Positions 2,027 through 49,067 of a stretch of 54,478 bases of DNA are shown here, one piece after another. The notes beneath the pieces were generated by a model. The model did no database searches and was not told the DNA's origin. It saw only the letters and a list, made by a program, of their open reading frames with translations. The DNA is from a virus (Duplodnaviria > Caudoviricetes): positions 1 to 54,478 of the IMG/VR virus record IMGVR_UViG_3300049982_000333; one strand, written 5' to 3'. Made by a program: the position numbers and the translations under genes. How positions within the stretch are numbered: the first letter of the stretch is position 1; each line of letters starts with the position of its first letter.

Positions 2027-2605
2027 ATGCCACGCGCTCAGGAAGAGTTCACGATCGAAGAGCACGCCCGAAACATCATCGACCTCGGGCACAACCTCGC
2101 GTTCTACGCCCTCATGGAGGCAGTGGAGATCACCGTCGAAGCGGAGGCCGCTGCAGCCCGCGAGGTAGAAGGCATGAAGAGCCTGCTGGCCAAGCTGGTC
2201 CAGAGGTTCGCCTACCACGGCGGGGGGCGGCATGGCGTCGACCCTGACGGCAGCAAGTCGGCCGCCGTGGTGGATCTGCTGCTGGACTCCGCGGCCGCGC
2301 GGATATGGGAGCAGCACGTGACGAATCTCAGTGGCATCGCCGCGCTTCTCGACCCTGGCACCGCTCCGGGCGGTGTGTTGGCGCACGTCCGCGTGTACGA
2401 CGACGACGCGTACGTCCAGAGCGTCGTCTGCCTGGTCCGGCCGGCCGATTGGAAGCTGCTTTTCGTCGACCCGGACGGGAAGTGCACCGGCAGCACGGTC
2501 GGCGGCAGCCGCCCGGCACACGAAGCGCTCACGGAGCACGTGCATCAGGTCTTCGGCCGGTCCGGCCGGATCGGCGAGGTCTTCGTCGAAGGGGTAGGCC
2601 AGTGA
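2027..2605 (+). CDS. Hypothetical protein
   Basis: AAGGAGG RBS at 2011, ATG 2027, GTGA overlap with downstream MTase. Confidence 0.7.
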   Translation: MPRAQEEFTIEEHARNIIDLGHNLAFYALMEAVEITVEAEAAAAREVEGMKSLLAKLVQRFAYHGGGRHGVDPDGSKSAAVVDLLLDSAAARIWEQHVTNLSGIAALLDPGTAPGGVLAHVRVYDDDAYVQSVVCLVRPADWKLLFVDPDGKCTGSTVGGSRPAHEALTEHVHQVFGRSGRIGEVFVEGVGQ

Positions 2606-3435
2606 AGATCCCGCCCGAGGTCCTGGAGGTCCTCACCGACCCGCGGACCGTCATCGCCGGCGACCGCGTGCACATCCCGTTCGAGCTGGGCAAGCCGCTG
2701 TACGAGCGGCTGAAGCGAATTTTCGGCGAGATGGGCGGCAAGTGGGACGGACGCAAGGCGGTCCGCGCGCATGTCTTCCCGCGCGGCATCGAGTCGTTCA
2801 TGTTCGATGCGATCACCGCGGGGGAGTTCCCGTCGCGGTTCGACACGGGGTGGTACGCCACGCCGCCCGCCGTGGTGGAGGAGCTCCTGGCCCACGCTGG
2901 CATCAGCGAGAAGTACCCGGGCAAGACGACGTTGGAGCCATCCGCGGGTATCGGATCGATCGCCGGGCCGGCTGCCGCGCGAGGCGCCGTCGTCGACGTC
3001 GTCGAGCTCGACGAGCACCGCGCGTCGGTGCTGGCCGGGCATGGCCTTTACCGGCGAGTGGTGCACGGCGATTTCCTGGAGGTCGACCCGCTGTCCTATG
3101 AGGTCGGTTTCCAGCGGGTGGTGATGAATCCGCCGTTCGCCGAGGGTCTGCGGCACGTCAACCACGCGCTGGGGTTCCTGGGGGATGACGGGGTGCTGGT
3201 GTCGGTGCTGTCCGAGGGCGTGACGTGGCACACCGACCGGGCCACCGTGGAGTTCCGCAGGATCGTCGACGAGGCCGGCGGCGCGATCGTGCGCCTCCCG
3301 GACGGGTCGTTCCGCGCGTCGGGAACCGATATCAAGTCCGTCCTCGTGGTCGTCCCGACGATGCCCGGGCACACGGTCCGGAACCACAGCTGGCACCTGC
3401 GCCGGCCGAAGCAGCTCGACCTGTTCGCTGCCTGA
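2602..3435 (+). CDS. SAM-dependent amino (N6-adenine-type) DNA methyltransferase
   Basis: Motif X (WYATPPAVV), motif I (LEPSAGIG), motif IV (VVMNPPF), LPDGSF; ends QLDLFAA. Confidence 0.85.
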   Translation: MKIPPEVLEVLTDPRTVIAGDRVHIPFELGKPLYERLKRIFGEMGGKWDGRKAVRAHVFPRGIESFMFDAITAGEFPSRFDTGWYATPPAVVEELLAHAGISEKYPGKTTLEPSAGIGSIAGPAAARGAVVDVVELDEHRASVLAGHGLYRRVVHGDFLEVDPLSYEVGFQRVVMNPPFAEGLRHVNHALGFLGDDGVLVSVLSEGVTWHTDRATVEFRRIVDEAGGAIVRLPDGSFRASGTDIKSVLVVVPTMPGHTVRNHSWHLRRPKQLDLFAA

Positions 3436-3800: not shown

Positions 3801-4550
3801 ATGACCGCCTACACCGAGGAGCTCGCCACCTGGCACGCGATCGCCGCCCAAATCGAGGCCGAGAACGGCCCCCTCCCGGGCAGCTACCGCGCCGAGCAGG
3901 CCGAGGCGGAAGCCGCCCGCCAGGCCGAGGCCGACGCGCTCGACGACAAGGCGCACGCCCAGGGGTGGGGCATCAAGGACCCCGCCCGCGCCGAGGCCGC
4001 CCGGCTGCGCGCCGAGTCCCGCGCCGCCGAGCTCCGCGCCGAGGCCGCCGACCACGACCTCAAGGCCCATGAGTCGCGCGAGCGGTGCGACACCGACGGC
4101 TTCATCTCCCAGTGGGCCGACGGCCTCATGGCCGCCGAGAAGCGCCTGCAGGCCGACATCGAGGAGGCCGGCGGCCGCGCCCTGTTCCCCGCCCTGTTCG
4201 ACCTCGCCGGCAACCTGGTCCCCGCCAAGCAGATGCAGGGCCAGTGGGGCACCTACTGGGCCGTGCTCGACGACAACGGCCGGATCACCGGCACCTGGTT
4301 CACCCCGTCCAAGTCGAGCAACGCGCGCCGCGCCCGGGCCGCCGACGCCGCCAAGGGCTACTACGTCGGGTACGTGATGGCGGCCGCGAAGGCGGAGATC
4401 CGCGGCGGCAACGCGACCTCCTGCAGCGCGGTGGCCGTGCGCACCGACGGCGGCTACTCCACCGACGTCGAGATCGTCGACGACGGCCAGCACGACGAGT
4501 TCGGCGAGACCCTCGGCCGCCACTACGCCATCTGGGGCGGCCTGATCTGA
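3801..4550 (+). CDS. Hypothetical protein
   Basis: GAAGGAG RBS, ATG 3801, strong codon bias, first gene after the promoter. Confidence 0.8.
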   Translation: MTAYTEELATWHAIAAQIEAENGPLPGSYRAEQAEAEAARQAEADALDDKAHAQGWGIKDPARAEAARLRAESRAAELRAEAADHDLKAHESRERCDTDGFISQWADGLMAAEKRLQADIEEAGGRALFPALFDLAGNLVPAKQMQGQWGTYWAVLDDNGRITGTWFTPSKSSNARRARAADAAKGYYVGYVMAAAKAEIRGGNATSCSAVAVRTDGGYSTDVEIVDDGQHDEFGETLGRHYAIWGGLI

Positions 4551-4561
4551 CCTCTACCCGC

Positions 4562-4607
4562 ACCCCCGGGGCGCCCGCCCCGGGGGTCTCCAACCGCTAC
4601 AGGAAGG
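4562..4607 (+). repeat. Hairpin plus AACCGCTACAGGAAGG start-associated repeat, copy 1
   Basis: 16-mer at 4592-4607 is identical to 4918-4933; preceded by stem ACCCCCGGGGC/GCCCCGGGGGT. Confidence 0.7.
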
Positions 4608-4612
4608 CCCCC

Positions 4613-4882
4613 GTGTCTGACCTCCCGCGCCCCCTCGGCCCCGTCCGCGCCGCCGTCGCCCGGCTGCTCGCCGAAGCCCTGGCCGCCGTTCACGGCGAAC
4701 GATCCCGCAACGCCACGGCTCTTCACCTCATGCCACCCAGCCTCGTCACCGCTGCGGTGTCCACCGCCGGCGAGCTGTGGATCTACCTCGGCCGTGAGGA
4801 TCCCGAGGACATGCTCTCCGGGCTGCAGCTGCGCGCCCTCAACGCCGCCGCTGACGTGTTCCACCCGAGCGACGACGACTAA
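4613..4882 (+). CDS. Hypothetical protein
   Basis: GTG start after AGGAAGG RBS. Confidence 0.6.
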   Translation: MSDLPRPLGPVRAAVARLLAEALAAVHGERSRNATALHLMPPSLVTAAVSTAGELWIYLGREDPEDMLSGLQLRALNAAADVFHPSDDD

Positions 4883-4933
4883 CCCCGCCCCCACGCCACA
4901 GGGGCTGGGGGCTCACTAACCGCTACAGGAAGG
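4883..4933 (+). repeat. Hairpin plus AACCGCTACAGGAAGG start-associated repeat, copy 2
   Basis: Identical 16-mer at 4918-4933 preceded by an imperfect GC stem. Confidence 0.7.
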
Positions 4934-4941
4934 ACCAGCAC

Positions 4942-6120
4942 GTGATCCGCATCGTGCACACCCGGGCCGAAGGCACGCTGATCGAAGGTTCCCGCAAGGG
5001 CGACGGCGTATGGGAGATCGTCCGAACCCGCGGGTTCCACTGGTCGCGCAACGTCGGCCTCTACATCCGGAACTCCCAGGACAAGGCCGCGGACCGGTGG
5101 ACGATCGACCGGGCGGTGCAGGCACTGCGCGACGCCGGGTTCGAGGTCCAGGTGGAGATCGACGACGTGACCCCGGGCCGGTCGTTCGCCGAGGCCGAGG
5201 CCGACCGCGTCGACCGCGCGGAGGACCGGGCCGACCGGTTCGGCGAGCGCGCCGACCGCAACGCCGCCTCCGGCGACGCCCGGTGGGAGGCGACCCGCGA
5301 GCGCATGTCGCACCTGCCGGCCGGGCAGCCGATCCTCGTCGGTCACCACAGCGAGGGCAAGCACCGCCGCCAGCTCGAATGGGCGGACAACCAGGACCGC
5401 AAGGCCATCGGCGAGCTGAAGAAGGGAGAGTACTGGGCAGGCCGGGCGGCCGCCGCCGAGAACTACCAGCGGCACCGGGAGGACCCGGGCACCACGCGCA
5501 GGCGCATCGAGAAGCTGCAGGCCGACCGGCGCCGCATCGCCAGTGTCCTTGAAGACGGCTGGAAGGAGACGGTCGACCCCGACGAGGAGGCCCCCGAGGG
5601 GGCCAAGGTGCTGCACGCCTGGGACGACGGCTACCGCATGTGCCAGGTGTGGCCGACCGGCGACCACAAGGCCTCCCGCGAGGCCGATCTCGCCCAGCTC
5701 GACGACCAGATCGGCTACTGGCAGCAGGTGCTCGCCAAGGCCGAGCAGCGCGGCGTGAAGCTGTGGAGCAAGGCCGACTTCGGCAAGGGCGATTTCGTGA
5801 TCTACCGCGGGACTGCGGTCGAGGTGATGCGGGTCAACGCCAAGTCGCTGACCGTCCCGTGGGGGCACTACTGGGCGGGGTCGGGGCTGCCGGTGGTGAC
5901 GGTCGAGTACGCCAAGGACGCGCACCGCCCGGGTGGCCGCATCTACACCGACACGCTGCCGTACGACAAGGTGCAGGGCCGCCTCAGCAGGGACGAAGCC
6001 ACAGCGCCCGGTCTCTCCCGGCCGCAGGTCCGCGAGCTCATCGCCAAGAGGGTTCGCGAAGCGCGGGGCGAGCAGCCGGAGCCGGCTGCGGAGGAGGCGC
6101 CGGCGGCAGAGCAGTCCTGA
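4942..6120 (+). CDS. DUF3560 domain-containing protein
   Basis: Signature GQPILVGHHSEGKHRR and RRRIEKLQADRRR. Confidence 0.85.
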   Translation: MIRIVHTRAEGTLIEGSRKGDGVWEIVRTRGFHWSRNVGLYIRNSQDKAADRWTIDRAVQALRDAGFEVQVEIDDVTPGRSFAEAEADRVDRAEDRADRFGERADRNAASGDARWEATRERMSHLPAGQPILVGHHSEGKHRRQLEWADNQDRKAIGELKKGEYWAGRAAAAENYQRHREDPGTTRRRIEKLQADRRRIASVLEDGWKETVDPDEEAPEGAKVLHAWDDGYRMCQVWPTGDHKASREADLAQLDDQIGYWQQVLAKAEQRGVKLWSKADFGKGDFVIYRGTAVEVMRVNAKSLTVPWGHYWAGSGLPVVTVEYAKDAHRPGGRIYTDTLPYDKVQGRLSRDEATAPGLSRPQVRELIAKRVREARGEQPEPAAEEAPAAEQS

Positions 6121-10349: not shown

Positions 10350-10585
10350 GCCTCCTGGACGACCCGTTCGCTCTGCGGCCGCATGATGTGCGGCCGCAGG
10401 TCCACCGATTCGAGGGCGGGCGGGTCACGCTGCTGTGCCCGTACGGGCATCTCATCTGTTCAATGGCGGCTGACGACTGGGCTGCCTCGGGATACGCCGC
10501 ACGTCTTGCCGACCCGGACTACACGGTCGCCTGCGCCAACGGCGCGGTGCCGGTCGAGATGTGGTGGAGGTCCCAGTGCAGCTGA
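10340..10585 (+). CDS. Small hypothetical protein starting MQLSLL (paralog of 9597-9824)
   Basis: Sequence similarity to 9597-9824; 10-bp overlaps at both ends. Confidence 0.7.
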   Translation: MQLSLLDDPFALRPHDVRPQVHRFEGGRVTLLCPYGHLICSMAADDWAASGYAARLADPDYTVACANGAVPVEMWWRSQCS

Positions 10586-11709
10586 CCCTGGACCTCCCCG
10601 CGCTGGACCGCCCCCGGCCCGTGCTGAACCTGCTGGCCTACGACCTGATCGTCATCTGCAGTTCTGCAGGCAAGGACTCGCTCGCACTGCTGGCCTGCGT
10701 CGCCGAGCTCATCGCCGAGCAGGGATACCGCGGCCGCGTGGTCGTGCTGCACAACCACCTCGGCGTCACCCGGTCCGGCGAGCCGGTCGAGTGGTGGGGC
10801 GTCGAAGCGGCCGCCCGCGAGCACGCCGCAGCGTGCGGGTTCGAGTTCGTGGTACGGCGCCGCCCGGGCGGCGGCCTGTGGGACCAGCTGCTCGGCCAGC
10901 GCCGCCGGTGGATGGCGAACAACGCGCGTTGGTGCACCAGCGATCAGAAGACCGGCCCGTCGATGACCTGGGTCACCGAGGCGGTCGCCGAGTTCTGGGA
11001 GCAGCTCGACATGCCCGCGGACCGGCCGGTGGAGGTGCTGTACTGCCTGGGCCTGCGCGGCGAGGAGTCCGCCGGCCGCGCCGGGCAGCCGATCGTCCAG
11101 GTGGACCAACGCCGCTCGTCGGGCAACCGGCGGATCACGCGGTGGCTGCCGATCCGGGACTGGACCATCCGGGACGTGTGGGGGCAGATCGCGGAGTCGG
11201 GTCTGCGGCCGCACGCCGGGTATTCCTGGGGTCTGGGCCGGTTGTCGTGCAGCTTGTGTGTGCTGGCGTCGCTGGAGGATCTGATGCTCGCCGCGGCGCT
11301 GCGCCCGGCGCTGGCGGCCGACTACCTGTGGGCGGAGATCGAGCTGGAGCAGCCGTTCACCGAACGGCTGTCCATGGGGCAGATCCTCGCCGGCCTCGAT
11401 GCCGCCCGGCTGGAAACCGCCGGCGACACCGCGGCGGCCGCCGACGCCACGGTGGTGTTGTACGAGATGGTCCGCGAGTTCCTGGCTGACACGCCCGCGG
11501 CCCGGGGCGAGGGGACCACCAAGTCGGGCAAGCCGCGCCGGCCGTGGACCGATCAGGAGCTGGCCGGCCGGGCGTCCGCGCGCACCGCCGAGATTCTCGC
11601 GGCCGGGCGCCGGGCCGTCGCGCTGGTGGCGGAGGCGGACACGAGTGTGTGGATGCTGGACCCGCTCGACGACCACGCGGCGGCTGTCCTGGCAGGAGCA
11701 GCCGGTTGA
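10576..11709 (+). CDS. PAPS reductase-like PP-loop protein
   Basis: CSSAGKDS PP-loop, RWCTSDQKTGP, GLRGEESAGRA, WLPIRDWT, RLSCSLC. Confidence 0.85.
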   Translation: MQLTLDLPALDRPRPVLNLLAYDLIVICSSAGKDSLALLACVAELIAEQGYRGRVVVLHNHLGVTRSGEPVEWWGVEAAAREHAAACGFEFVVRRRPGGGLWDQLLGQRRRWMANNARWCTSDQKTGPSMTWVTEAVAEFWEQLDMPADRPVEVLYCLGLRGEESAGRAGQPIVQVDQRRSSGNRRITRWLPIRDWTIRDVWGQIAESGLRPHAGYSWGLGRLSCSLCVLASLEDLMLAAALRPALAADYLWAEIELEQPFTERLSMGQILAGLDAARLETAGDTAAAADATVVLYEMVREFLADTPAARGEGTTKSGKPRRPWTDQELAGRASARTAEILAAGRRAVALVAEADTSVWMLDPLDDHAAAVLAGAAG

Positions 11710-12330: not shown

Positions 12331-12516
12331 ATGGTCGGCCAGCAGCGCACCACCGCGCACTACGAGCGCGACTGCCCAATGTGTGGCGTCAGGATCGTGG
12401 AGGAGCGTGACCGCGAGTACGCACCCATGGTCGGCGCGTTCTGGCACTGCGGCCAGCGTGTGGACATCGGGCGGACGATATACCGCGCGGATGGCACCGC
12501 GATCCACAACCCCTGA
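12331..12516 (+). CDS. Small zinc-ribbon hypothetical protein
   Basis: CPMCG...WHCG; GAAGGG RBS. Confidence 0.55.
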   Translation: MVGQQRTTAHYERDCPMCGVRIVEERDREYAPMVGAFWHCGQRVDIGRTIYRADGTAIHNP

Positions 12517-12538
12517 CCCGACCTCGGTCTGCGCGGCC

Positions 12539-12574
12539 TGGACATCGAACCTTAAGGACCTTAAGGTATTGCTC
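12539..12574 (+). promoter_or_regulatory. Leaderless promoter with tandem palindromic operator CCTTAAGG x2
   Basis: TGGACA-N17-TAAGGT-N7-ATG; CCTTAAGG at 12550-12557 and 12559-12566. Confidence 0.7.
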
Positions 12575-13213
12575 ATGACCTGGAACGAAATCGGCATCGA
12601 ACCGGCCCGGAAGAAGCTCGGCGCCCTCGTGGCCGCCGCCCAGCGCGGACAGACCACCATCCTCACCCGCAACCGGACTCCCGCCGCGATGATCACACCG
12701 GTTCCCCTGCACCTCGCCCTCCGCGACATCAGCGTCGAAGCCATCGACCAGGGCAACTGGCGCGACCAGGCCATCCAGGACTGGATCGAAGCCGCCGCCG
12801 AGGAGGGCTACGGCTTCACCGTCCGGCGCACCCACTACTCCGGCGACGTGCTGGCCGTCCTCGCCGAGGACAAATGGATAGGCGACGAGATCACCCAGGG
12901 CGAGCCGCTCGCCCTGCTCGTCGACCGCACGCACCCGGATGTCGCAGAGGGCGATGGGGACACGCTCGACATCCACCCCGGGCTCATATCCCTACGCGGG
13001 GACCCCGGGCCCGCGGACGCCGTTCAGAGCGACGGCGACATCCCCGACCGGCCCGCCACAGCAGACATGGTCGTGGCCGGCCGATTCCGCGTCCAACGAA
13101 ACGGCTCGGGCGGAATCAGTCTCGACTGGGGCGACGGCGAGATCGACATGGGCGACGACGACGCCGAGCAACTCGCCGCAGCTCTCGCGACCGTACGTCG
13201 CCAGCCGCGATGA
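12575..13213 (+). CDS. Phd/YefM antitoxin-like DNA-binding domain fused to an acidic C-terminal region
   Basis: N-terminus IGIEPARKKLGALVAAAQRGQTTILTRNRTPAAMITPV matches the Phd fold pattern. Confidence 0.7.
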   Translation: MTWNEIGIEPARKKLGALVAAAQRGQTTILTRNRTPAAMITPVPLHLALRDISVEAIDQGNWRDQAIQDWIEAAAEEGYGFTVRRTHYSGDVLAVLAEDKWIGDEITQGEPLALLVDRTHPDVAEGDGDTLDIHPGLISLRGDPGPADAVQSDGDIPDRPATADMVVAGRFRVQRNGSGGISLDWGDGEIDMGDDDAEQLAAALATVRRQPR

Positions 13214-13295
13214 CCACCCGTTGACCCTCGCACCTGGTGATCGGCTAGCATCGACAGTGATCGGCTGATCATGTTGCGGCGCAGCCGATCGCCCC

Positions 13296-13366
13296 GCGCC
13301 GGAGTTGTGACGGCCGCATGCCCCTCTTCCCGAGGGGCGGACCAGGTTCGAGTCCTGGCCGGCGCT
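13296..13366 (+). tRNA. Non-canonical tRNA-Gly(TCC)-like RNA
   Basis: Acceptor GCGCCGG/CCGGCGC plus U73; anticodon arm CCCCT-CTTCCCG-AGGGG; T-arm CCAGG-TTCGAGT-CCTGG; weak D-arm; A8 and C37 deviations; no encoded CCA. Confidence 0.7.
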
Positions 13367-13401
13367 CGGCTTGCACACCGCCAGAGACCCGGGGGCTGGC
13401 T

Positions 13402-14745
13402 ATGTTCCACGGATCTATCCCAGCTCCGCTCCGCTCGATCATCTACGAGCACGCAGGCACCTGGCCAGGCGAGGACATCTACGTCGGCTGCAGCGGCAAC
13501 TTCACGATCGAGCGCGTGCTCCACGCCCGGTTCGGCGCCACCCGCGCCGTCCACGGCAACGACGTCCAGGCTTACTCGAGCGCCCTCGGCTGGTGGCTGG
13601 CCGGCCAGCCCGTCCCCTTCACCCTCCGCGAAGACCACGAGGAAGCCCTCGGCTGGCTCAGGCCCTACCTCGACGACCCCACAGACCTGCTCGCCACCCT
13701 GATGCTCGGCACCCGGTTCCTGCAGTGGGTCGGCAAGACCGGCCCGTACTACCGGCGGATGCTCGCGGCGACGCAAGATCAGTGGCCTCGCATGCACGAC
13801 AAGACCGCGACCAAGCTGCGGAACCTGACCGTACGGCTCGGCTCCTACTTCGCCGGCGACGTCCGCGACTACCTGACGCAGGTGGTGCCCGACACCGCGC
13901 CGGTCGTCATGTTCCCTCCGTTCTACGGCGGAGACTACGAAGCGCAGTTCGCGCCGATCGATGCCGCGTTCGACTGGCCGGCCCCGACGTTCGACGAGCT
14001 CGACGAGGACGGGAAAGAGCAGATCATCGCCCAGGTCCGCGAGCGTCCCAACTGGATGCTCGGCCTGCACATCGAACGGCCCGAGCTGCGCGCCCAGCTC
14101 GCCGGCGTCGTCCAGACCGCCAACCGCGGCCTGCCGATCTACGTGTACGCCGCGTCCGGGCCGCGGCGCATCGTCCGCCCGCACCAGACGACCGCCGGCA
14201 TCCCCATGCCGAAGATCGGTCCCGACGACGTGCTCGGCGACCGCATGGCGCTGCACATGCTCAGCGGCGGCCAGTTCGCCGCGATCCGCTCGCAGTTCAT
14301 GTCCAAGACGATCAAGCCGGGGTCGCCTTTGCTGGCGTGTGGCGTCTCCGTTGACGGGAAGATCGTCGGCGCGTTCGCGTTTCTGCCGCCGAAGTTCGAG
14401 CCGACCTCTGCCTACCTGATGTCGGACTTCCCGGTGTCGTGGAGCCGGTACCGGCGCCTGGCCAAGCTGATCGTCATGGCCGCCAACACCAGGGAGGCGC
14501 AGCTGCTGCTGCAACGCTCGCTGTCCCGCCGGATCACCGACTGGTCGACCACGGCGTTCACCGACAACCCGAACTCGGCGAAGTACGGGCGAGGCATCCC
14601 CGGCGTCAAGCTGGAGAAACGCACGGAGCCCGCGGCTGACGGCGTCCACCGCTACCAGCTGCAGTACGGCGGCCCGATGGGTCAGCGCACACTGGCCGAA
14701 GCGCTCGACCTGTGGAAGCGCAAGCACGGCAAGGACACCAGATGA
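13402..14745 (+). CDS. Putative DNA-modification/antirestriction enzyme: adenine-MTase-like N-terminus plus GNAT(Mom)-like C-terminus
   Basis: DIYVGCSGNF (motif I-like), HGND, VVMFPPFY (degenerate DPPY); C-terminal GVSVDGKIVGAFAF...YLMSDFPV...RLAKLIVM...TTAFTDNPNSAKY resembles a GNAT fold. Confidence 0.6.
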   Translation: MFHGSIPAPLRSIIYEHAGTWPGEDIYVGCSGNFTIERVLHARFGATRAVHGNDVQAYSSALGWWLAGQPVPFTLREDHEEALGWLRPYLDDPTDLLATLMLGTRFLQWVGKTGPYYRRMLAATQDQWPRMHDKTATKLRNLTVRLGSYFAGDVRDYLTQVVPDTAPVVMFPPFYGGDYEAQFAPIDAAFDWPAPTFDELDEDGKEQIIAQVRERPNWMLGLHIERPELRAQLAGVVQTANRGLPIYVYAASGPRRIVRPHQTTAGIPMPKIGPDDVLGDRMALHMLSGGQFAAIRSQFMSKTIKPGSPLLACGVSVDGKIVGAFAFLPPKFEPTSAYLMSDFPVSWSRYRRLAKLIVMAANTREAQLLLQRSLSRRITDWSTTAFTDNPNSAKYGRGIPGVKLEKRTEPAADGVHRYQLQYGGPMGQRTLAEALDLWKRKHGKDTR

Positions 14746-15683
14746 CCGACACCGCCTCGACCACCCCCCGCCTGCGCCCTCGCATCGTGCGTCGTGACCC
14801 CCGTCAGCTCACCCGCCTCCCGGTCAACGCCCGCTTCATGACGAAGGAGAAGTACGACCGGCTGGTCGCCAACATCAAAGACGACGGGTGCCTCACCAGC
14901 GTCCCTCTCGTCTACGGCGCCGGCGAATACCCCGAGGGCCAGGAGCTGATCCTTTCCGGCAACCACCGCTGCGACGCAGCCGTCGACGCCGGCGTGTTCG
15001 AGGTCGACGTCATGCTGATCGAGGACAAGGAGGAGAAGCAGCGGCTCATCGCCCGCCAGCTGTCGCACAACGCCATCGAGGGCGAAGACGACGACGCCAC
15101 CCTCAAGCAGTTGTACGACCAGATCGATGACGTCGACTGGCGGGCCTACTCCGGCCTCGACGACGAGCGGCTGAAGCTGCTGGCCGAGGTTCAACCCGAG
15201 GGACTGTCGGAGGCGAACCTGGATTTCGCCACGGTGCAGCTCATCTTCCTGCCGGCCGAGCTGGAGGCCGCCCGCGCCGCGTTCAACGACGCGAAGTTCG
15301 GCCAGGATGAGACCTGGCTCGCTGCTATCGCCGATTACGAGCCCACCCTTGACGCGCTCAGCTCCACCCACGCCGCCCACCGGGTCACCAACGTGGCCAC
15401 GGCCCTGCACGCCATCCTGGCCATCGTCGAGCGGCACCTGGACGACCTCCAGGCCGGATACACCGGGCCCGACGGCGAGGCGATCCATACGGGGCGCGTG
15501 GGCCTGGAAACCGTGCTCGGAGCGCGTACTCTGCCCGCCGGCGCGGCCGTGACCATCAACAAGGCGATCGCACGCGCGGAAGGGCTGAAGGAGATCCCCC
15601 ACGGTCAGGGCTATCTGCTCCTGGAGCGTCTCGCCGGCGAGTACCTGTCGGGGCCCACCCCGACCCCTGCCGAAGCGCGATAG
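14742..15683 (+). CDS. ParB/Srx-like domain protein
   Basis: NARFM...LVANIKDDGCLTSVPLV...ILSGNHRCDAA...QLSHNAIEGEDD; ATGA coupling to upstream gene. Confidence 0.8.
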   Translation: MTDTASTTPRLRPRIVRRDPRQLTRLPVNARFMTKEKYDRLVANIKDDGCLTSVPLVYGAGEYPEGQELILSGNHRCDAAVDAGVFEVDVMLIEDKEEKQRLIARQLSHNAIEGEDDDATLKQLYDQIDDVDWRAYSGLDDERLKLLAEVQPEGLSEANLDFATVQLIFLPAELEAARAAFNDAKFGQDETWLAAIADYEPTLDALSSTHAAHRVTNVATALHAILAIVERHLDDLQAGYTGPDGEAIHTGRVGLETVLGARTLPAGAAVTINKAIARAEGLKEIPHGQGYLLLERLAGEYLSGPTPTPAEAR

Positions 15684-15689
15684 GGCGCC

Positions 15690-16355
15690 ATGAGCGATCT
15701 CAAGCGGCTCAAGCTGGATCCCGCGCTTGATCCCTGGGAACGACAGCCAGAGGAGTCGATCAAGCGACACAACCAGTTCGCGACCTACCGGGACATTGGC
15801 CGGACCCGCACCATGCGCAAGGCCGCGGAGCAGCTCACACGCGCCGACTCGTGGGTCCGGCAGGTCGGCGCAGCGTTCAAGTGGCGCGAGCGGGCCGAGG
15901 CGTATGACCGGCACATGGACCAGCTGTACGAGGCGGCGTGGCTGGAGGAGCGCCGCAAGGCGGCCGAGACGGACTCGAAGATCCTGAACGCCGCAGTCGG
16001 GAAGATCGCTCAACGGCTGACTGCGCTCAACGCGGCCGACCTGTCCCCGGGTGACCTGATCCGGCTGATAGACGTGGCCATGCGGCACCGGCGCATCTTG
16101 TTCGGTGACCCGGCGACGACGATCGTCGCGCATGACCTGGGGGGTGGTGACCAGCAGGTGCGTATCGCCGAACAGCAGGGCGTGTTGCTCGCGGAGGTGA
16201 TTCGTCGTGTCGCTGACCGGCTGCTCAACGCGGTGGTGGACCAGCTCGACGACCCGGCCGCGACCGACCGGATTGGGCGTGAGTGGCCGGGGCTCCTATC
16301 GGAGATCGTTCCGCGGGAGATCGCTGCCGTCGCAGGAGATGACAACGATGGCTGA
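15690..16355 (+). CDS. Putative terminase small subunit
   Basis: PWERQPEES...FATYRDIGRTRTMRKAA...WRERAEAYD HTH pattern seen in phage terS-like proteins; position. Confidence 0.6.
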   Translation: MSDLKRLKLDPALDPWERQPEESIKRHNQFATYRDIGRTRTMRKAAEQLTRADSWVRQVGAAFKWRERAEAYDRHMDQLYEAAWLEERRKAAETDSKILNAAVGKIAQRLTALNAADLSPGDLIRLIDVAMRHRRILFGDPATTIVAHDLGGGDQQVRIAEQQGVLLAEVIRRVADRLLNAVVDQLDDPAATDRIGREWPGLLSEIVPREIAAVAGDDNDG

Positions 16356-17157
16356 CCAGGAAGGGGGGAGCTTGATGCCGTACCACGAGGGTGCCTGTCC
16401 AGGGCCGTGCAACCGCACCTACCGAAAGGCGGTAGATAGGTACGACGCTGCCGTCGAGGTGTACAAGCAAGCGATGACCAAATGGGCCTCCCGGCGGCCG
16501 GCTAAACGCGGGGAGCGCCCGGAGCGGCCGGAACTGCCGACAGTGGTCCCGGTGCTGGGTGATCCGATGTGGTCTGCTCGGTGCTGCTCGTTGATCCGTG
16601 CCGCGCTGGCCGAACTGGACGACCTTGCGAGCCTGTTGGCCGCCTCGTCGGACGGGCACCGCGGGGGTGCGCCGCGTGGCAACCAGAAGACCGGGCACGT
16701 CGGGAAGAGCAGCTCGGCGGCGTCGTTGTCGCCGATCGCTGACACCCTCGACGAGCTGTTCGGGGCGTTGGTGAAGGTGGAGGACGATTGGCGGGAGTTC
16801 CGCCGGTACCCGGGCCGGCCGAGTCGGGGCCGCGGTGGCCACGCCCGGCGGCTCAGCATCACGTTCCTGCTGGATGAGCTGGACGCGATCCTGACCCACT
16901 CGGGCAGCTTGCAGTTCGGGTTGGCGACGCTGTCCTGGCAGCGGCGTCTGCGCTCCCTGACCAAGAGCGACCCTGTTGCCGTTCAGTCGCCGATCCGGTG
17001 TCCGCGTTGTGGTGAGCGGGGGCGGGTACAGCGGGAGGACGACGGCTACTACAAGTGCGGCAGCTGTCAGCGACTCATGACTCAGCAAGAGCACGACCGG
17101 GAGTTCGACGAGCAAGCCCGAGCACAGGAAGCGGCCGAAATGGCTGGCGCGTCGTGA
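16348..17157 (+). CDS. Putative late-gene transcriptional regulator with C-terminal zinc finger
   Basis: CPRCGERG...YKCGSC; lies immediately before a promoter/terminator pair. Confidence 0.5.
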   Translation: MADQEGGSLMPYHEGACPGPCNRTYRKAVDRYDAAVEVYKQAMTKWASRRPAKRGERPERPELPTVVPVLGDPMWSARCCSLIRAALAELDDLASLLAASSDGHRGGAPRGNQKTGHVGKSSSAASLSPIADTLDELFGALVKVEDDWREFRRYPGRPSRGRGGHARRLSITFLLDELDAILTHSGSLQFGLATLSWQRRLRSLTKSDPVAVQSPIRCPRCGERGRVQREDDGYYKCGSCQRLMTQQEHDREFDEQARAQEAAEMAGAS

Positions 17158-25601: not shown

Positions 25602-27143
25602 GTGGCTCTCACCGCGTGGGAGCACTGCGCAGCCCAGTTCGCCCCCAGGAAGCGCAGGTGGCCGAGCCCGGGGGCAATGGCCACCGAGCTGGACCGCACC
25701 CATCGCCAGACGGTGATGCTGGACCTGTTCGACCGCGAGCTCGTCGAGCTGTTCGACGGGACCGACAACCGCAACCTGATGATCTTCTGCCCGCCGCAGG
25801 AGGGCAAGTCCCAGAAGGTGTCCCGCCGCACCCCGGCGTGGCTGTTGGCGCACGATCCGACGCTGCGGATCGCGATCGTCTCCTACGCGGGCGACAAGGC
25901 AGTGCGGTGGGGCCGGCAGATCCTCCGGGACATCCGCGCCCATCCCGAGCTCGGCATCACCTTGCGCAAGGACGCCCAAGCGGCGGGCCGGTGGGAGACC
26001 GAGCAGGGCGGCAGTCTGATCTGCGTCGGCATCTCCGGCGGCATCACCGGCGAGCCCGTCGACGTGCTCATCATCGACGACCCTGTCGAGGGCCGCGCGG
26101 AGGCCGAGTCGGCGACCTACCGGCGACAGGCGTGGGACTGGTGGGAGTCCAACGGATCCACGCGTCTCTCCTCCCGCGGCCGGGTCCTGCTGATGATGAC
26201 CCGCTGGCACGAGGACGACCTGGCGGGCCGGCTGCTCGCCCGCGAGCCGAAAGAGTGGCGAGTGATCAGCGTCCCAGCGATCGCCGGCGACGGCGACCCG
26301 CTGGGCCGCCGCCCGGGCCAGGAGCTCATCTCCGTGCAGAGGCGCCGTCCGCGCTACTTCTACGGGTTGAAGGAGCGCCGATCGGCGTACGCCTTCAACA
26401 GCATCTACCAGCAGGCGCCCGTCCCGGCTGAGGGGAACCTGTTCAGGCGGTCTGATTTCCGGTACTGGCATCCGTTGCCCGCCGACCCGTCCAGGCATGG
26501 CGTGCTGGGTGGTAGCCGCATCGACGTCGCCGGCAGGGCTGTGTCGCTGGAGGACTGCTGGCGGTTCCTCACCGTCGACCTTGCCGCGTCCGTGCGGACG
26601 TCGGCGGACTGGACCGTCGCGTCGGCGTGGGCGATCTCTCCGGACGGCGACCTCATCCTGCTGGACCGGGCCCGGGCGCGGATCGAAGAGGGAGAGCACT
26701 GGGACCTGGTGCGGCCGCTGAAGGAGCGGTGGGTCGCGGACACCGTGTTCGTGGAGTCCGCGTTCATCGGCACAACGTTCGTGATCGACGCGGTCGCGTC
26801 CGGGGTGCCGGTGCAGCCGCTGACCGCGGACACCGACAAGCTCACCCGCGCTCTGCCGGCGGCGTCGCGGGTGAAGCAGCACCGGGTGTGGTTCCCGGCC
26901 GCCGCGGGCTGGCTGGACGTGTGGTGTGACGAGCTCGCGAGCTTCCCGACGGCGGCGCATGACGACCAGGTGGACACCCTGGCGTATGCGGCGCGGGTGC
27001 GGTCCGCGCACTGGCTGGCGCAGGAACCTGCGGCGCAGGCCGGCGCCCGCCGCGGCTCGTCCGAGCAGAGTGCGATCGAGCAGGCGTACACCGCGGCCAC
27101 CGGCGGCGACTCGGGGTTGGACTTCATGTCGATCGACTACTGA
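25602..27143 (+). CDS. terL: Terminase large subunit
   Basis: PPQEGKS Walker A, LIIDDP Walker B, MTRWHEDDL, YQQAP, TVDLA, HDDQVD nuclease motif. Confidence 0.95.
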   Translation: MALTAWEHCAAQFAPRKRRWPSPGAMATELDRTHRQTVMLDLFDRELVELFDGTDNRNLMIFCPPQEGKSQKVSRRTPAWLLAHDPTLRIAIVSYAGDKAVRWGRQILRDIRAHPELGITLRKDAQAAGRWETEQGGSLICVGISGGITGEPVDVLIIDDPVEGRAEAESATYRRQAWDWWESNGSTRLSSRGRVLLMMTRWHEDDLAGRLLAREPKEWRVISVPAIAGDGDPLGRRPGQELISVQRRRPRYFYGLKERRSAYAFNSIYQQAPVPAEGNLFRRSDFRYWHPLPADPSRHGVLGGSRIDVAGRAVSLEDCWRFLTVDLAASVRTSADWTVASAWAISPDGDLILLDRARARIEEGEHWDLVRPLKERWVADTVFVESAFIGTTFVIDAVASGVPVQPLTADTDKLTRALPAASRVKQHRVWFPAAAGWLDVWCDELASFPTAAHDDQVDTLAYAARVRSAHWLAQEPAAQAGARRGSSEQSAIEQAYTAATGGDSGLDFMSIDY

Positions 27144-47487: not shown

Positions 47488-48654
47488 TCAGACGTCCGGA
47501 CAGTCCAGCCAGACGCTCTGCCCGCCCGGGCCCACGGTCATCCCGAACCGCTCACGGCCTGGCGCGCCGGCGCGCAGCCACCGTTCGTACGCGGCCTCCA
47601 GCTCATCCCACAGTGGCCGGCCACCGCCCTGCATCACCTCCACCTCGCCGCTCTCCTCCCAGGCGCACACCAGCGCCCAGTCATCGCCGTGGAGGTGACG
47701 CAGCCGCATCGTCCACGCCTGCTCGCCGTCGATGGCCTCCCACCCGGCCCAGGTGACCACCAGGTCCGGCGCCACCGTAGCGAGGTAGAGCCCGAACCCT
47801 TCTATCCACGCGGGGGACAGGCCCTGCGGATCCAGCCGGGTCGTCGACGTCGCCCCCTCGCCCGGGTACGGCGGCCAGCTGCGTGGCGCCCGCTGGGCCC
47901 GCATCATCATGAACGTGGCCGCGCCGGCGAACCGGCCCACCGCGGTGCCGCCGTGGCGCACGTGCAGCTGCAGCTGCTCGCCCCACTGCCCGTGCGCGGG
48001 CATCCACGGGGCGACGATCACCCCGCCCGGGCGGGTCTGCTGCACCCACGCGTAGGGGATGTCCCGGACGCCGCAGGTGACGTGCACCCGGTCGTACGGC
48101 GCCCGGGCGTCGTGGCCGAGCGCGCCGTCCCCCGTGATGACCGTGGGGCAGTGGCCGGCCGCTGCCAGAGCGTCGGCCGCCGCGGCGGACACGCGGCTGT
48201 CGACCTCGACGGTGACGACGTGATCGTCGCCGAGCCGCCAGCTCAGCATGGCCGCGCTCCACCCGGTGCCCGTGCCGATCTCCAGCACCCGGTTGCCGTC
48301 GGCCACATCCAGCAGCCGCAGGAACTCCATGGCGACGTGCGGGCACGAAAGGCTCGAGCTCGGCGGGCTGGAGGTGTCGGCGACGTCGGCGGTTCCGTCG
48401 CCGCGTTGGGTGATGATCGTGGTGTTGGAGTAGACCGCGTCCCACCACGGCCGAGAGTCACGGTGGCGGTCGATGATGTGCTCGGGCCGGTCGTCCATCG
48501 GCTCGGCCCAAGCCCGCGTCGGGACGAAAGCGTGGCGAGGCACAGCGCGCAGGCCAGCCATCCACGCGCGGCTGTCTCGATCGGTGGGTTCGAGGACGCC
48601 GGCAACGGTCAGGTAGCCGACCAGGGCGTCAAGGTGTTCTCGTGTGGCGATCAT
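47488..48654 (-). CDS. Protein-L-isoaspartate O-methyltransferase (PIMT) homolog
   Basis: AVPRHAFVP, SSSLSCP, VLEIGTGTGWSAA, GDGALG, PYDRVHVTC. Confidence 0.9.
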   Translation of the reverse strand: MIATREHLDALVGYLTVAGVLEPTDRDSRAWMAGLRAVPRHAFVPTRAWAEPMDDRPEHIIDRHRDSRPWWDAVYSNTTIITQRGDGTADVADTSSPPSSSLSCPHVAMEFLRLLDVADGNRVLEIGTGTGWSAAMLSWRLGDDHVVTVEVDSRVSAAAADALAAAGHCPTVITGDGALGHDARAPYDRVHVTCGVRDIPYAWVQQTRPGGVIVAPWMPAHGQWGEQLQLHVRHGGTAVGRFAGAATFMMMRAQRAPRSWPPYPGEGATSTTRLDPQGLSPAWIEGFGLYLATVAPDLVVTWAGWEAIDGEQAWTMRLRHLHGDDWALVCAWEESGEVEVMQGGGRPLWDELEAAYERWLRAGAPGRERFGMTVGPGGQSVWLDCPDV

Positions 48655-49067
48655 GGCAGCTCCTTCCGCGGCTGGCAGGTGACCATGGCCGTAGACGTTG
48701 CTTCCCGCGCCGCCAGGCCGCACTGCTGGGCGAGCTCTTCGGCTGTCTTCCGGATCAGCGCCACTGCGGCGGCGGCGGTTTCCGCCTTCTCCTCGACGGT
48801 CTCCGCGAGTTCGCGGAACTGTTCGACGACCGCCTCATCTAGGGTCTGCTGGAGGCGCTCCTGAAAGATGCTGATCACCGCGTGGCCCATGGCTCGGGGG
48901 TCGCTCACTCGCCCGCCGGTCACCTCGTCGTAGACGATTGGGACCTGGCCTATCAGGAACTGGTAGTCGGCGAGCTCGCGCTGCACTGCATCGCGATTCA
49001 GGCTGCCGTCTGGGTTCTCGACCAGGTGCTGCCAGAACCTGGTGTACGTCTGCTCGTAGTCGGACAT
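48651..49067 (-). CDS. Hypothetical protein
   Basis: GAGGA RBS; ATGA overlap with PIMT. Confidence 0.7.
   Translation of the reverse strand: MSDYEQTYTRFWQHLVENPDGSLNRDAVQRELADYQFLIGQVPIVYDEVTGGRVSDPRAMGHAVISIFQERLQQTLDEAVVEQFRELAETVEEKAETAAAAVALIRKTAEELAQQCGLAAREATSTAMVTCQPRKELP

Follow-up and report, generated by a model that had tools for sequence, protein, structure and literature searches.

The 54,478-nt stretch of phage DNA analysed here (hereafter the window) carries a gene for an unusual glycine tRNA in front of a gene for a two-domain enzyme, followed by genes for a ParB-like protein and a terminase small subunit-like protein, and this raises the question of what a glycine tRNA does beside such an enzyme. 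An earlier note, made from the sequence alone, had proposed that the RNA carries glycine for a packaging-coupled, anti-restriction base modification. The glycine-carrier reading is supported by our analysis, and the packaging-coupled and anti-restriction roles are treated here as putative. We propose that the tRNA-Gly-like RNA, the Dam-like/GNAT fusion enzyme and the ParB-like protein constitute a cassette whose most likely function is the attachment of a glycine-derived group to phage DNA, with a probability of about 0.6. No published description of a tRNA-Gly/fusion enzyme/ParB-like cassette was found in the literature search.

Organization of the locus

ARAGORN called exactly one tRNA in the window, a + strand tRNA-Gly(tcc) spanning 13296-13367, of which the 71 nt from 13296 to 13366 run from G1 to U73 and end 35 nt before the start of the fusion enzyme gene. 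The features of the locus are as follows.

13221..13251, + strand: possible promoter, TTGACC (13221-13226), 19-nt spacer, TAGCAT (13246-13251), read by eye; weak
13296..13366, + strand: tRNA-Gly-like gene, anticodon UCC (ARAGORN, covariance model R1, minimum free energy (MFE) cloverleaf, covariation among relatives)
13402..14745, + strand: fusion enzyme gene, 447 aa (Pfam PF22555 and PF22559; phrog_7858)
13405..14217, + strand: Dam-like domain with Rossmann methyltransferase fold, residues 2-272 (PF22555 DAM-like-phage1, E = 1.6e-104)
13912..13926, + strand: motif F171-P-P-F-Y175 at the position of Dam motif IV (DPPY), from alignment
14239..14730, + strand: GNAT-fold domain, residues 280-443 (PF22559 GNAT-phage-like, E = 1.4e-56)
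14742..15683, + strand: ParB/Srx-like partner gene, 313 aa (phrog_7405, PHROG ParB-like families)
15690..16355, + strand: terminase small subunit-like gene, terS (phrog_6299, E = 5.7e-23)

The start codon of the enzyme gene is set by a conserved N-terminus, MF.G.IP, in which F2 is invariant and G4 nearly so among 52 sequences. Its stop codon TGA (14743-14745) overlaps the ATG of the partner gene at 14742 (ATGA), which implies translational coupling. The candidate promoter sits about 45 nt 5′ of the tRNA-Gly-like gene, and a TANNNT hexamer occurs at a similar distance in related loci; a consensus promoter scan called none at 13221..13251. The arrangement that the earlier note had described, namely a 71-nt tRNA-like gene 35 bp before the enzyme gene, coupling of the latter to a ParB/Srx gene and a terS-like gene behind, was thus confirmed.

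Linkage of the tRNA-Gly-like gene to the enzyme gene

Well over a hundred relatives of this prophage carry the odd Gly tRNA gene beside the enzyme gene and the ParB-like gene. Using R1, a covariance model made from the relatives, we detected a tRNA-Gly-like gene at E ≤ 0.01 in 88 of 98 homologous loci, and one or two such genes in 47 of a second set of 65 further viral loci (31-81% protein identity); because some DNA is common to both sets and close relatives are numerous among the loci, these counts do not represent independent events. The linkage to tRNA-Gly that the earlier note had expected in homologues was therefore found. The background in five host genomes, each of 8-11 Mb, amounted to 13-20 R1 matches per genome at E ≤ 1e-3, from which a chance match would be expected in a locus of about 6 kb approximately once in a hundred, against the 88 of 98 observed. 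In 69 of the 76 distinct cases of the first set and 34 of the 40 of the second, no more than 250 nt separated the 3′ end of the RNA from the start codon. The tRNA was located downstream of the enzyme gene in L098, L168, L194, L202 and L204, and on the opposite strand in L084 and L189. ARAGORN typed upstream same-strand tRNAs in 68 of the 98 loci as Gly (64) or irregular (4), and found no non-Gly tRNA in this position in any of the 98. A tRNA was absent from the flanks of 10 of the 98 and 18 of the 65 loci, and a search of the former ten with filters off returned nothing above 12.3 bits. Phages without a linked tRNA would have to draw on host tRNAGly, like Mu.

The three genes co-occur across phages and prophages of Actinomycetota, and also in metagenome-assembled genomes (MAGs) labelled Chloroflexi, Dormiibacterota, Planctomycetota, Bacillota and Vicinamibacterales; the enzyme family comprises 828 clusters at 50% identity. 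In the record of the Mycobacterium phage Jeon, a tRNA-Gly(tcc) is annotated directly 5′ of gene 68.

Charging and decoding features of the RNA family

The cloverleaf is the MFE structure of the window RNA alone (−39.6 kcal/mol, z = −2.54, equalled by 1 of 200 shuffles), and this RNA scored 78.4 bits against R1. In the region 12500-14000, the Rfam tRNA model RF00005 gave no match at E ≤ 1 (gathering score, 29 bits), and the sole Rfam match was to the tRNA-like mascRNA model at 23 bits. In alignment A3, which holds 58 distinct sequences, 95.7% of cells were paired, compared with 77.9% after shuffling (reached by 0 of 500) and about 40% with slid partners, and 16 of the 22 pairs of the cloverleaf showed changes on both sides. 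The tRNA-Gly-like RNA family is a covarying cloverleaf.

The identity set of bacterial GlyRS was taken as G1-C72, C2-G71, U73, C35 and C36 from PMC7826273. Position counts were made on 77 distinct tRNA-Gly-like sequences: G1, C2, G71, C72, U73 and C35 were present in all 77, and C36 in 76. The pair G3-C70, which we presume to belong to the set as well, had each of its bases in 76 of 77, so that every identity position was invariant or one short. Reading of the window RNA revealed the complete set (G1-C72, C2-G71, G3-C70, U73, C35, C36), in agreement with the earlier description of its GlyRS identity and TCC anticodon; CCA is absent from the encoded 3′ end.

The features connected with decoding behaved differently. 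Every base occurs at position 34 (U 50, C 16, A 10, G 1; n = 77), giving all four NCC anticodons including ACC. U33 was kept in only 51 of 77 sequences and U8 in only 49, and position 37 was A in 33, G in 33, C in 5 and U in 4. Positions 32 and 38 form a covarying standard pair in 56 of the 58 sequences of A3 (CG 42, GC 9, other standard 5) and are unpaired in two. G55 goes together with loss of the D-loop GG, which was present in 1 of 15 sequences with G55 versus 34 of 60 with U55. In the window RNA itself, position 8 is A, position 37 is C and C32 pairs with G38, whereas all 17 chromosomal tRNA-Gly genes of five host genomes, compared by eye, have U8, U33, A37 and A38. By the standard of U33, U8, a purine at position 37 and the absence of strong 32:38 pairing, neither the window RNA nor the family as a whole has a decoding-competent loop. 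Since the GlyRS identity is kept, position 34 is free, 32:38 is paired, and U33, U8 and the purine at 37 are often lost, the sequence pattern matches what is expected of an RNA that carries glycine rather than decodes.

A dedicated non-proteogenic tRNAGly that serves FmhB, FemA and FemB has been described in Staphylococcus aureus (PMC7826273). It shares with the cassette RNA a retained GlyRS identity set and altered D and T arms, and by analogy the cassette RNA would likewise be a poor partner of EF-Tu and the ribosome and serve a transferase outside translation. According to that report, the S. aureus tRNAs belong to the cell, occur only in staphylococci and supply peptidoglycan synthesis, whereas the cassette RNA is viral, is encoded in cis to its enzyme gene, and has the 32:38 pair, a non-U33 and the free position 34.

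Domains of the fusion enzyme

The AlphaFold2 model of the fusion enzyme had a pLDDT of 93.9. Its N-terminal domain adopts a class I methyltransferase fold with a Dam-type helical insert, and the structure matches that covered most residues, the insert included, were DpnM, T4 Dam and EcoDam (191-204 aa versus about 150 aa). In a profile search, the Dam-like domain had no significant match to any methyltransferase in PDB. Among 52 sequences, P172 and P173 of the FPPFY motif are nearly invariant, and its first residue is F or Y in 26 of the 26 rows shown of the 52-sequence alignment, rather than the polar residue that opens motif IV, (D/N/S)PP(Y/F/W). The motif IV D/N of amino-methyltransferases contacts the target amino group. 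hhalign placed FPPFY on the DPPY of EcoDam in an alignment that was not significant (probability 0.3%), and in three homologues (P0008, P0101 and P0125) inteins are inserted exactly after the motif. The enzyme shares with Dam, DpnM and T4 Dam the Rossmann methyltransferase fold, the helical insert and PP(F/Y) at motif IV, and differs from Dam in the replacement of D/N by F or Y, the fusion to a GNAT domain and the lack of a significant sequence match. The methyltransferase-like half with FPPFY in place of DPPY, as read in the earlier note, is in this form upheld. G32 and D54 are invariant among the 52 sequences, and C30, S31, N33 and N53 are nearly so. Judging by the fold, G32 and D54 presumably correspond to the glycine of motif I and the aspartate of motif II in the cofactor site of Dam-type enzymes. 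Because both are invariant, the Dam-like domain may still bind SAM or another adenosine ligand, which our preferred reading leaves unaccounted for.

The C-terminal domain was modelled with a pLDDT of 89.8. Its GNAT assignment, which the earlier note had set in advance as a test of its reading, held by both Pfam and structure comparison. Foldseek and VIA-align returned GNAT-fold matches, Mu Mom (8bv8) among them at rank 3 of 999, level with ordinary acetyl-CoA GNATs. K394 and Y395 are invariant among the 52 sequences, and D342, F343 and R397 are nearly invariant there and invariant in a 28-sequence alignment of the C-terminal half; overall, conservation of the GNAT domain equals that of the methyltransferase-fold domain. 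GNATs normally carry a glycine-rich loop after strand 4. In the consensus this place reads RLSKLV, and a glycine-rich CoA-pyrophosphate loop was not seen there by eye.

The earlier note had also called this half Mom-like, a label that holds for the fold and not for the sequence. The fusion enzyme matched only PF22555 and PF22559 at E ≤ 0.01 and not the Mom family PF25680, which Mu Mom itself matched at 2.4e-75 as a control. The hhalign probability was 0.8% for alignment A2 against Mu Mom alone, and 2% for A4 against a 26-sequence Mom alignment (A9), over 22 columns of the strand 2-3 hairpin only. The fusion enzyme is thus not a member of the Mom family by sequence and is Mom-like in fold only.

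The report to which the earlier note alluded, that Mom uses Gly-tRNAGly, does exist: according to PMC13219725, Mu Mom (PF25680; PDB 8bv8) moves glycine from Gly-tRNAGly onto N6 of adenine in double-stranded DNA, yielding N6-carbamoylmethylation, and possesses an HTH-like insertion together with a catalytic set of R111, S124, D149 and R151. Mom is a single-domain dimer served by any host tRNAGly isoacceptor (PMC13219725), whereas the cassette enzyme, with no detectable sequence kinship to it, is fused to a Dam-type domain and has a ParB-like partner and its own deviant tRNA gene. The linked tRNA-Gly gives indirect support, from gene context, to the view that the enzyme may work like Mom, not that it belongs to the Mom family.

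The ParB-like partner and terS

The ParB-like protein matched PHROG ParB-like families down to 1.6e-10, and its Atlas neighbours are ParB/Srx clusters. The protein of the window had no Pfam match at E ≤ 0.01, and PF02195 (ParB_N) matched 17 of 30 aligned relatives at E ≤ 0.1; the motif S72-G-N-H-R76 is invariant among the aligned relatives. The gene lies directly downstream of the enzyme gene in 92 of the 98 loci. By tblastn, terS came next in 70 of 98 and was undetected in all of L081-L098, which are MAG and uncultured-genome loci. terS is a neighbour in actinobacterial loci and lies outside the core cassette.

In PMC13229309, ParB-like proteins are described as activators that are required by, and specific to, their cognate enzymes in one subclass of phage thymine dioxygenases (5mYOX), and ParB-terminase loci with DNA methyltransferases were reported by Iyer, Zhang and Aravind (PMC4738411). 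The present cassette has in common with these systems a ParB-like gene beside a (here putative) phage DNA-modifying enzyme, near packaging genes. It differs in that its enzyme is a GNAT/Dam-like fusion, whereas theirs are Fe/2OG dioxygenases or active methyltransferases, without a tRNA.

Proposed mechanism and alternative explanations

We propose that the RNA would be made as part of the operon transcript and, once processed, would receive glycine from the host GlyRS. The changes in its anticodon loop and core would hold it off EF-Tu and the ribosome, creating a private donor pool, a step modelled on the non-proteogenic tRNAGly of S. aureus that serves the Fem transferases. The Dam-like domain would bind DNA and flip into its FPPF pocket a base that bears an exocyclic amine, most likely adenine, while the GNAT domain would grip the glycyl-CCA end and pass glycine to the base amine as in Mu Mom; a subsequent rearrangement of the glycyl product may give a carbamoylmethyl group. 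The ParB-like protein would activate the enzyme or steer it to DNA, and may act near the packaging start, since terS follows in most actinobacterial loci. In the stronger form of this proposal, which we rate at about even odds, the RNA would be a private cofactor tRNA, charged by GlyRS and ignored by the ribosome, with the sole job of giving glycine to a Dam-like/GNAT enzyme that aminoacylates phage DNA bases with a ParB-like activator; this would be a second, independently evolved route besides Mom and the first viral tRNA dedicated to a task outside translation.

Two other uses of the RNA were weighed, both of which we consider unlikely. The RNA could be a substrate or scaffold, in that the fusion protein methylates or acylates it, acetylates its glycyl group, or uses it as a guide or structural cofactor. 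The precedent for acetylation is provided by the TacT and AtaT toxins, GNATs that recognise an aminoacyl-tRNA (Gly-tRNAGly in the case of TacT, according to PMC13219725) and acetylate its amino acid via acetyl-CoA; they are paired with an antitoxin, whereas the cassette has no antitoxin, no CoA loop by eye, a Dam-type fusion and a phage late-operon context. The best-covering fold matches are moreover DNA methyltransferases, the partner is ParB-like and the locus adjoins terS, and a mere target would leave the strict retention of GlyRS identity unexplained unless charging were still needed. Alternatively, Gly-tRNA could be the donor and the acceptor a protein (the ParB-like partner, the terminase or the capsid), a lipid or a small molecule, like Fem, L/F-transferase, MprF or PacB. 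Before Mom, every known case in which a GNAT-related enzyme transferred an aminoacyl group from tRNA involved a non-DNA acceptor, according to PMC13219725. Against such an acceptor, we note that the GNAT is joined to a Dam-type domain whose base-pocket motif, an aromatic PP(F/Y), is conserved, and that its obligate partner is ParB-like, ParB-like proteins being activators of a phage DNA-modifying enzyme (PMC13229309).

It is less probable still that the RNA is an ordinary phage translation tRNA, or an operon-leader processing or regulatory element, whose location has no functional meaning. Phages do often carry tRNA genes, RF00005 matched 3 of 10 related loci tested at 46-62 bits, and some distant members have ordinary-looking anticodon loops such as UUUCCAA. 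An ordinary tRNA would nevertheless not be expected to be solely Gly at a constant site next to a single gene family in several phyla (by record title), to take all four NCC anticodons, to lose U33 in 26 of 77 sequences or to covary at 32:38; GGA is moreover the least used Gly codon in the window (72 of 1001 Gly codons in 22 ORFs), and a processing signal alone would not need C35, C36 and U73. Just as improbable is an N6-adenine methylase that depends on SAM, has a GNAT domain as an accessory and bears no relation to the tRNA: the NCBI name of the protein (putative antirestriction adenine methyltransferase, which no paper was found to use), the Dam-type fold, the presumed cofactor-site residues G32 and D54 and the methyltransferase labels of homologues in some phage records speak for it, but the loss of the motif IV D/N in all 26 rows shown of 52 and a GNAT domain as conserved as its neighbour speak against it, and the tRNA-Gly linkage would be left unexplained.

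Significance

To our knowledge, tRNA-dependent DNA modification is known from one enzyme family only, Mom, which was solved in 2023-2026. If our preferred reading of the cassette as a glycine-dependent DNA modification system is true, Mom-type chemistry arose again in another GNAT family, and phages bring their own donor tRNA, sparing the translation pool of the host, a drain on which was raised as a cost by the Mom authors (Discussion of PMC13219725). ParB-like proteins would then be partners of a second class of phage DNA-modifying enzymes, and an orthogonal tRNA/enzyme pair that writes amino acids onto DNA could be a useful tool. Cultured carriers, among them the Mycobacterium phages Jeon and Taptic and the Gordonia phages Clawz and Jollymon, are available on non-pathogenic laboratory hosts, so that the idea is directly testable. 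It offers a testable function for a class of orphan phage tRNA genes, which are usually put down to codon usage, and for genes that records of cultured Mycobacterium and Gordonia phages label methyltransferase or hypothetical.

Organization of the cassette in the prophage

The window, which is the entire record, is a provirus with a G+C content of 69.5%. Among sequencing runs, one DNA dataset was found to contain it, a soil metagenome that may be its source, and no RNA dataset. All the cassette elements named in the earlier note, namely the tRNA, the fusion gene, the ParB-like gene and the terminase small subunit gene (terS), were found where it had placed them, in the following layout:

Left part of the window: early genes
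13296–13367: tRNA-Gly(UCC), the sole tRNA found by ARAGORN in the window
13402–14745: fusion enzyme gene (447 aa), with the Pfam domains DAM-like-phage1 (residues 2–272, E 1.6e-104) and GNAT-phage-like (residues 280–443, E 1.4e-56)
Directly after the fusion enzyme gene: ParB-like gene, matching phrog_7405 and PHROG ParB families
6 nt after the ParB-like gene: terS, matching phrog_6299
25602–27143: TerL gene, with the portal, protease, major head and tape-measure genes after it

The 3′ end of the tRNA is separated by 35 nt from the ATG of the fusion enzyme gene at 13402, and the stop codon of this gene overlaps the start of the ParB-like gene in an ATGA. A scan of positions 13000–13450 called neither a promoter nor a terminator, and the promoter-like hexamers are a by-eye reading only. 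Folding 150 nt that span the leader, the tRNA and the spacer gave no improvement over shuffled sequences (z −0.75), and therefore no leader structure is claimed.

In the ORF immediately 5′ of the tRNA (12383–13213, +), one stretch resembles Phd/YefM antitoxins, weakly and below threshold (E 0.0052). Another ORF (16207–17157, +), which shares about 150 nt with the 3′ end of terS, matches phrog_1568, a DNA-binding protein; its C-terminal zinc ribbon gave sub-threshold Pfam matches, with Lar restriction alleviation at E 0.0011 and with Mu Com at E 0.0032. In Mu, the translation of mom is under the control of Com; the match found here is far too weak to serve as a basis for anything further. A PAPS-reductase-like gene (10561–11709, +), which matches BrxP (E 2.2e-13) and also DndC models (PADLOC, NCBIfam), may be part of a second DNA-modification function in the prophage. 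Two further methyltransferase-like genes (2305–3435, +, and 47488–48723, −) match PADLOC mad2 (E 2e-14 and 6.6e-11, respectively) as well as PHROG DNA methyltransferase families.

A tRNA-Gly gene is linked to the enzyme gene

Homologous loci were gathered from cultured phages (15 records, 5 from Gordonia and 10 from Mycobacterium, with identities of 43–57%), from IMG/VR contigs (15 loci), and from a collection with one genome per species, which was searched with a 52-sequence alignment and from which the best 80 of 118 relatives were taken. These best 80 include Streptomyces, Micromonospora, Actinoplanes, Nonomuraea and Kutzneria, along with MAGs labelled Chloroflexi, Dormiibacterota, Planctomycetota, Bacillota and Vicinamibacterales. 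ARAGORN called a same-strand tRNA upstream of the enzyme gene in 68 of the 98 loci of this first set; 64 were of glycine type (UCC 44, CCC 15, ACC 4, GCC 1), four had an irregular loop, and none at this position was assigned to another amino acid. With a covariance model of the cassette tRNA trained on 58 distinct sequences (E ≤ 0.01), one copy was found in the window and a copy in 88 of the 98 loci, including Gordonia phages without an ARAGORN call. The other ten loci gave no tRNA match even with the filters off (top score 12.3 bits). When IMG/VR was scanned again, now with the alignment, 80 loci were obtained, of which 65 (identity 31–81%) were left after removal of 15 repeats; 47 of the 65 had a tRNA match, two of them with tandem copies, and the anticodon was NCC in all 47. 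Since the two sets partly overlap (L205 and L094, for example, represent one and the same DNA) and many loci are closely related, 88/98 and 47/65 count loci, not independent events. As a scale for chance, the model found 13–20 matches per host genome in five genomes of 8–11 Mb. The linkage to tRNA-Gly for which the earlier note proposed a test in homologs thus holds in both sets.

In a few distant loci, the tRNA-Gly gene lies 3′ of the enzyme and ParB genes (L098, L168, L194, L202 and L204) or on the opposite strand (L084 and L189), and therefore the gene order is variable and the neighbourhood constant. Tandem or duplicated cassette tRNAs are present in L186 (1478–1624), in L203 (2261–2422) and in the genome of L025 (G007:C4, at about 255410 and 257474). 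L025 is among the ten negative loci, and the two model matches of its genome are on the same strand, some 4 and 6 kb upstream, apparently on the same contig. The GenBank record of Mycobacterium phage Jeon (L003) carries an annotated tRNA-Gly(tcc) immediately 5′ of the homologue. The annotated CDS of gene 68 in this record (locus positions 3947–5335) begins within the tRNA-Gly (3893–3964); since the conserved N-terminus begins at locus position 4001, the true start is probably downstream of the deposited one.

The cassette tRNA is genuine but abnormal

The cloverleaf is the minimum free energy fold of the window tRNA alone, with an anticodon stem of 7 bp and a loop of 5 nt. The Rfam tRNA model did not reach E ≤ 1 on this RNA, which has A8, C37 and a C32–G38 pair. 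Across the 58 distinct sequences, 95.7% of the cells of the cloverleaf were paired, and 16 of the 22 pairs showed changes on both sides. Shuffled controls had 77.9% paired, with none of 500 reaching the observed value, and slid partners about 40%. Position 32:38 is a covarying standard pair in these sequences (CG 42, GC 9, other standard 5, unpaired 2). A remnant of an attP or integration site was rejected as the origin of the tRNA, since it is full-length, covarying and internal to the phage genome, with the early genes on one side and terS on the other.

Positions were counted in 77 distinct sequences among 89 model matches. G1, C2, G71, C72, U73 and C35 were invariant, and G3, C70 and C36 were each present in 76 of the 77; the G3–C70 pair is a GlyRS identity element too. 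Apart from this pair, the positions kept coincide with the GlyRS identity set given in PMC7826273. This set, noted earlier for the window alone, is invariant or nearly so (76/77) across the distinct sequences. Position 34 was U in 50, C in 16, A in 10 and G in one of the 77; ACC is not known as a normal glycine anticodon in bacteria. U33 was retained in only 51 sequences and U8 in 49, and any base occurred at position 37. All 17 chromosomal tRNA-Gly genes read by eye in five host genomes have U8, U33, A37 and A38. In these genomes, chromosomal tRNA-Gly scored 60–70 bits with the model versus 72–88 bits for the cassette copy, and fell below the cassette copy in four of the five; in G004, a chromosomal tRNA-Gly(CCC) scored 69.9 bits, near the 72.2 bits of the cassette copy. 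The conservation pattern, with GlyRS identity retained and features at U8, U33 and position 37 often lost, argues that selection has kept the requirements of charging and relaxed those of the ribosome.

The D-loop GG was found in 1 of 15 tRNAs with G55 and in 34 of 60 with U55, an association that looks like tertiary-contact covariation. CCA was encoded in 31 of 76 distinct cases in the first set and 25 of 40 in the second. GGA, the codon that a UCC anticodon reads best, is used least among the glycine codons of 22 ORFs of the window (72/1001). Two Streptomyces chromosomal loci, L111 (G002:C1, about 3946298–3946370) and L110, carry an extra tRNA-Gly(UCC) beside tRNA-Gly(GCC). The extra tRNA of L111 lacks the D-loop GG and has a T-loop UGC instead of UUC, as do some cassette tRNAs with regard to UGC; in L110, both loops look ordinary (T-loop UUC, D-loop GG). 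The extra tRNA-Gly(UCC) may be a cell-wall (Fem-type) tRNA.

Folds of the fusion enzyme

The enzyme family comprised 828 clusters at 50% identity (E ≤ 1e-3), or 267 at 1e-30, and nearly all members are full-length fusions. The full-length model was confident (pLDDT 93.9). The N-terminal half has a class I methyltransferase fold; G32 and D54 are invariant, and in motif IV the two prolines are nearly so. Amino-methyltransferases have D, N or S before this PP, and the fusion enzymes among the 26 listed of 52 aligned sequences have F or Y, in agreement with the earlier reading of a methyltransferase-like half with the D/N of motif IV replaced. Sequence searches of the PDB with the whole protein and with profiles of either half found no methyltransferase; CaMKII kinases gave short matches in the FPPF region, both with the whole protein and with the N-half profile, which were taken as chance, and the C-half profile matched only germacradienol/geosmin synthase (E about 0.7). 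The comparison of the N-terminal half with E. coli Dam was not significant (hhalign, probability 0.3%), and neither NCBIfam nor PADLOC holds a model for the fusion protein. Inteins (Hint domain) occupy one identical site in the Dam-like domain of the homologues P0008, P0101 and P0125, directly after FPPF(Y/F/D), and other homologues of about 700 aa have the same insertion. Inteins favour functionally critical sites.

The C-terminal half had been described as GNAT(Mom)-like. The GNAT fold is supported by its model (pLDDT 89.8), and kinship with Mom is not, as Pfam and hhalign comparisons gave no relationship by sequence. The GNAT CoA motif is a glycine-rich loop after strand 4; the corresponding segment here has no such loop. 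FemX, TacT and L/F-transferase were absent among the 50 matches listed for the GNAT half, but these best 50 are tied, and the absence is therefore no sign that the three are less similar.

The ParB-like partner and the core of the cassette

A ParB-like homologue, in which an SGNHR motif is invariant, lies directly 3′ of the enzyme gene in 92 of the 98 loci. Three of the others (L088, L096 and L097) end at the contig end; in L031, L041 and L057 there is room downstream and the gene was not found. terS follows in 70 of the 98 loci; none was detected in L081–L098, the loci from MAGs and uncultured genomes. A PAPS-reductase/BrxP-like gene is upstream in only 15. On these counts, the core of the cassette consists of the RNA, the fusion enzyme and its ParB-like partner. 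The predicted complex of the enzyme with this partner scored 0.10 against a mark of 0.32, which gives no verdict either way. For one subclass of phage thymine dioxygenases, a 2026 study (PMC13229309) showed ParB-like proteins to be required, cognate-specific activators; a stable complex could not be trapped in that study.

A probable tRNA-dependent DNA-modifying system with its own donor tRNA

The observed co-occurrence of the genes, the structure and conservation pattern of the RNA, and the folds of the enzyme are best accounted for by a tRNA-dependent DNA-modifying system, Mom-like in action, differently built, and provided with its own donor tRNA. The host GlyRS would charge the cassette RNA, which would be kept out of translation, and the enzyme would act on DNA, presumably on a base. 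The chemistry, the biological purpose and an activating or other role of the ParB-like protein are likewise proposed. This model leaves unexplained the invariant residues of the Dam-like domain, which we take to be a cofactor site. That RNA instead of DNA is the target of the enzyme is a less probable alternative, for which the RNA-methyltransferase-like fold matches speak.

ParB-terminase loci with methyltransferases were predicted to modify DNA during packaging (PMC4738411). The passages of the Mom study that bear on the donor (PMC13219725) describe no phage tRNA and state that all host tRNAGly isoacceptors work. We found no prior description of the cassette in the literature searched, which included the papers on Mom and 5mYOX (phage thymine dioxygenases). 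We class the cassette as a putative form of tRNA-dependent DNA hypermodification, a known process; in contrast to Mom, it brings a dedicated tRNA encoded by the virus, its enzyme belongs to another GNAT family and contains a Dam-type module, and a ParB-like protein is its partner.
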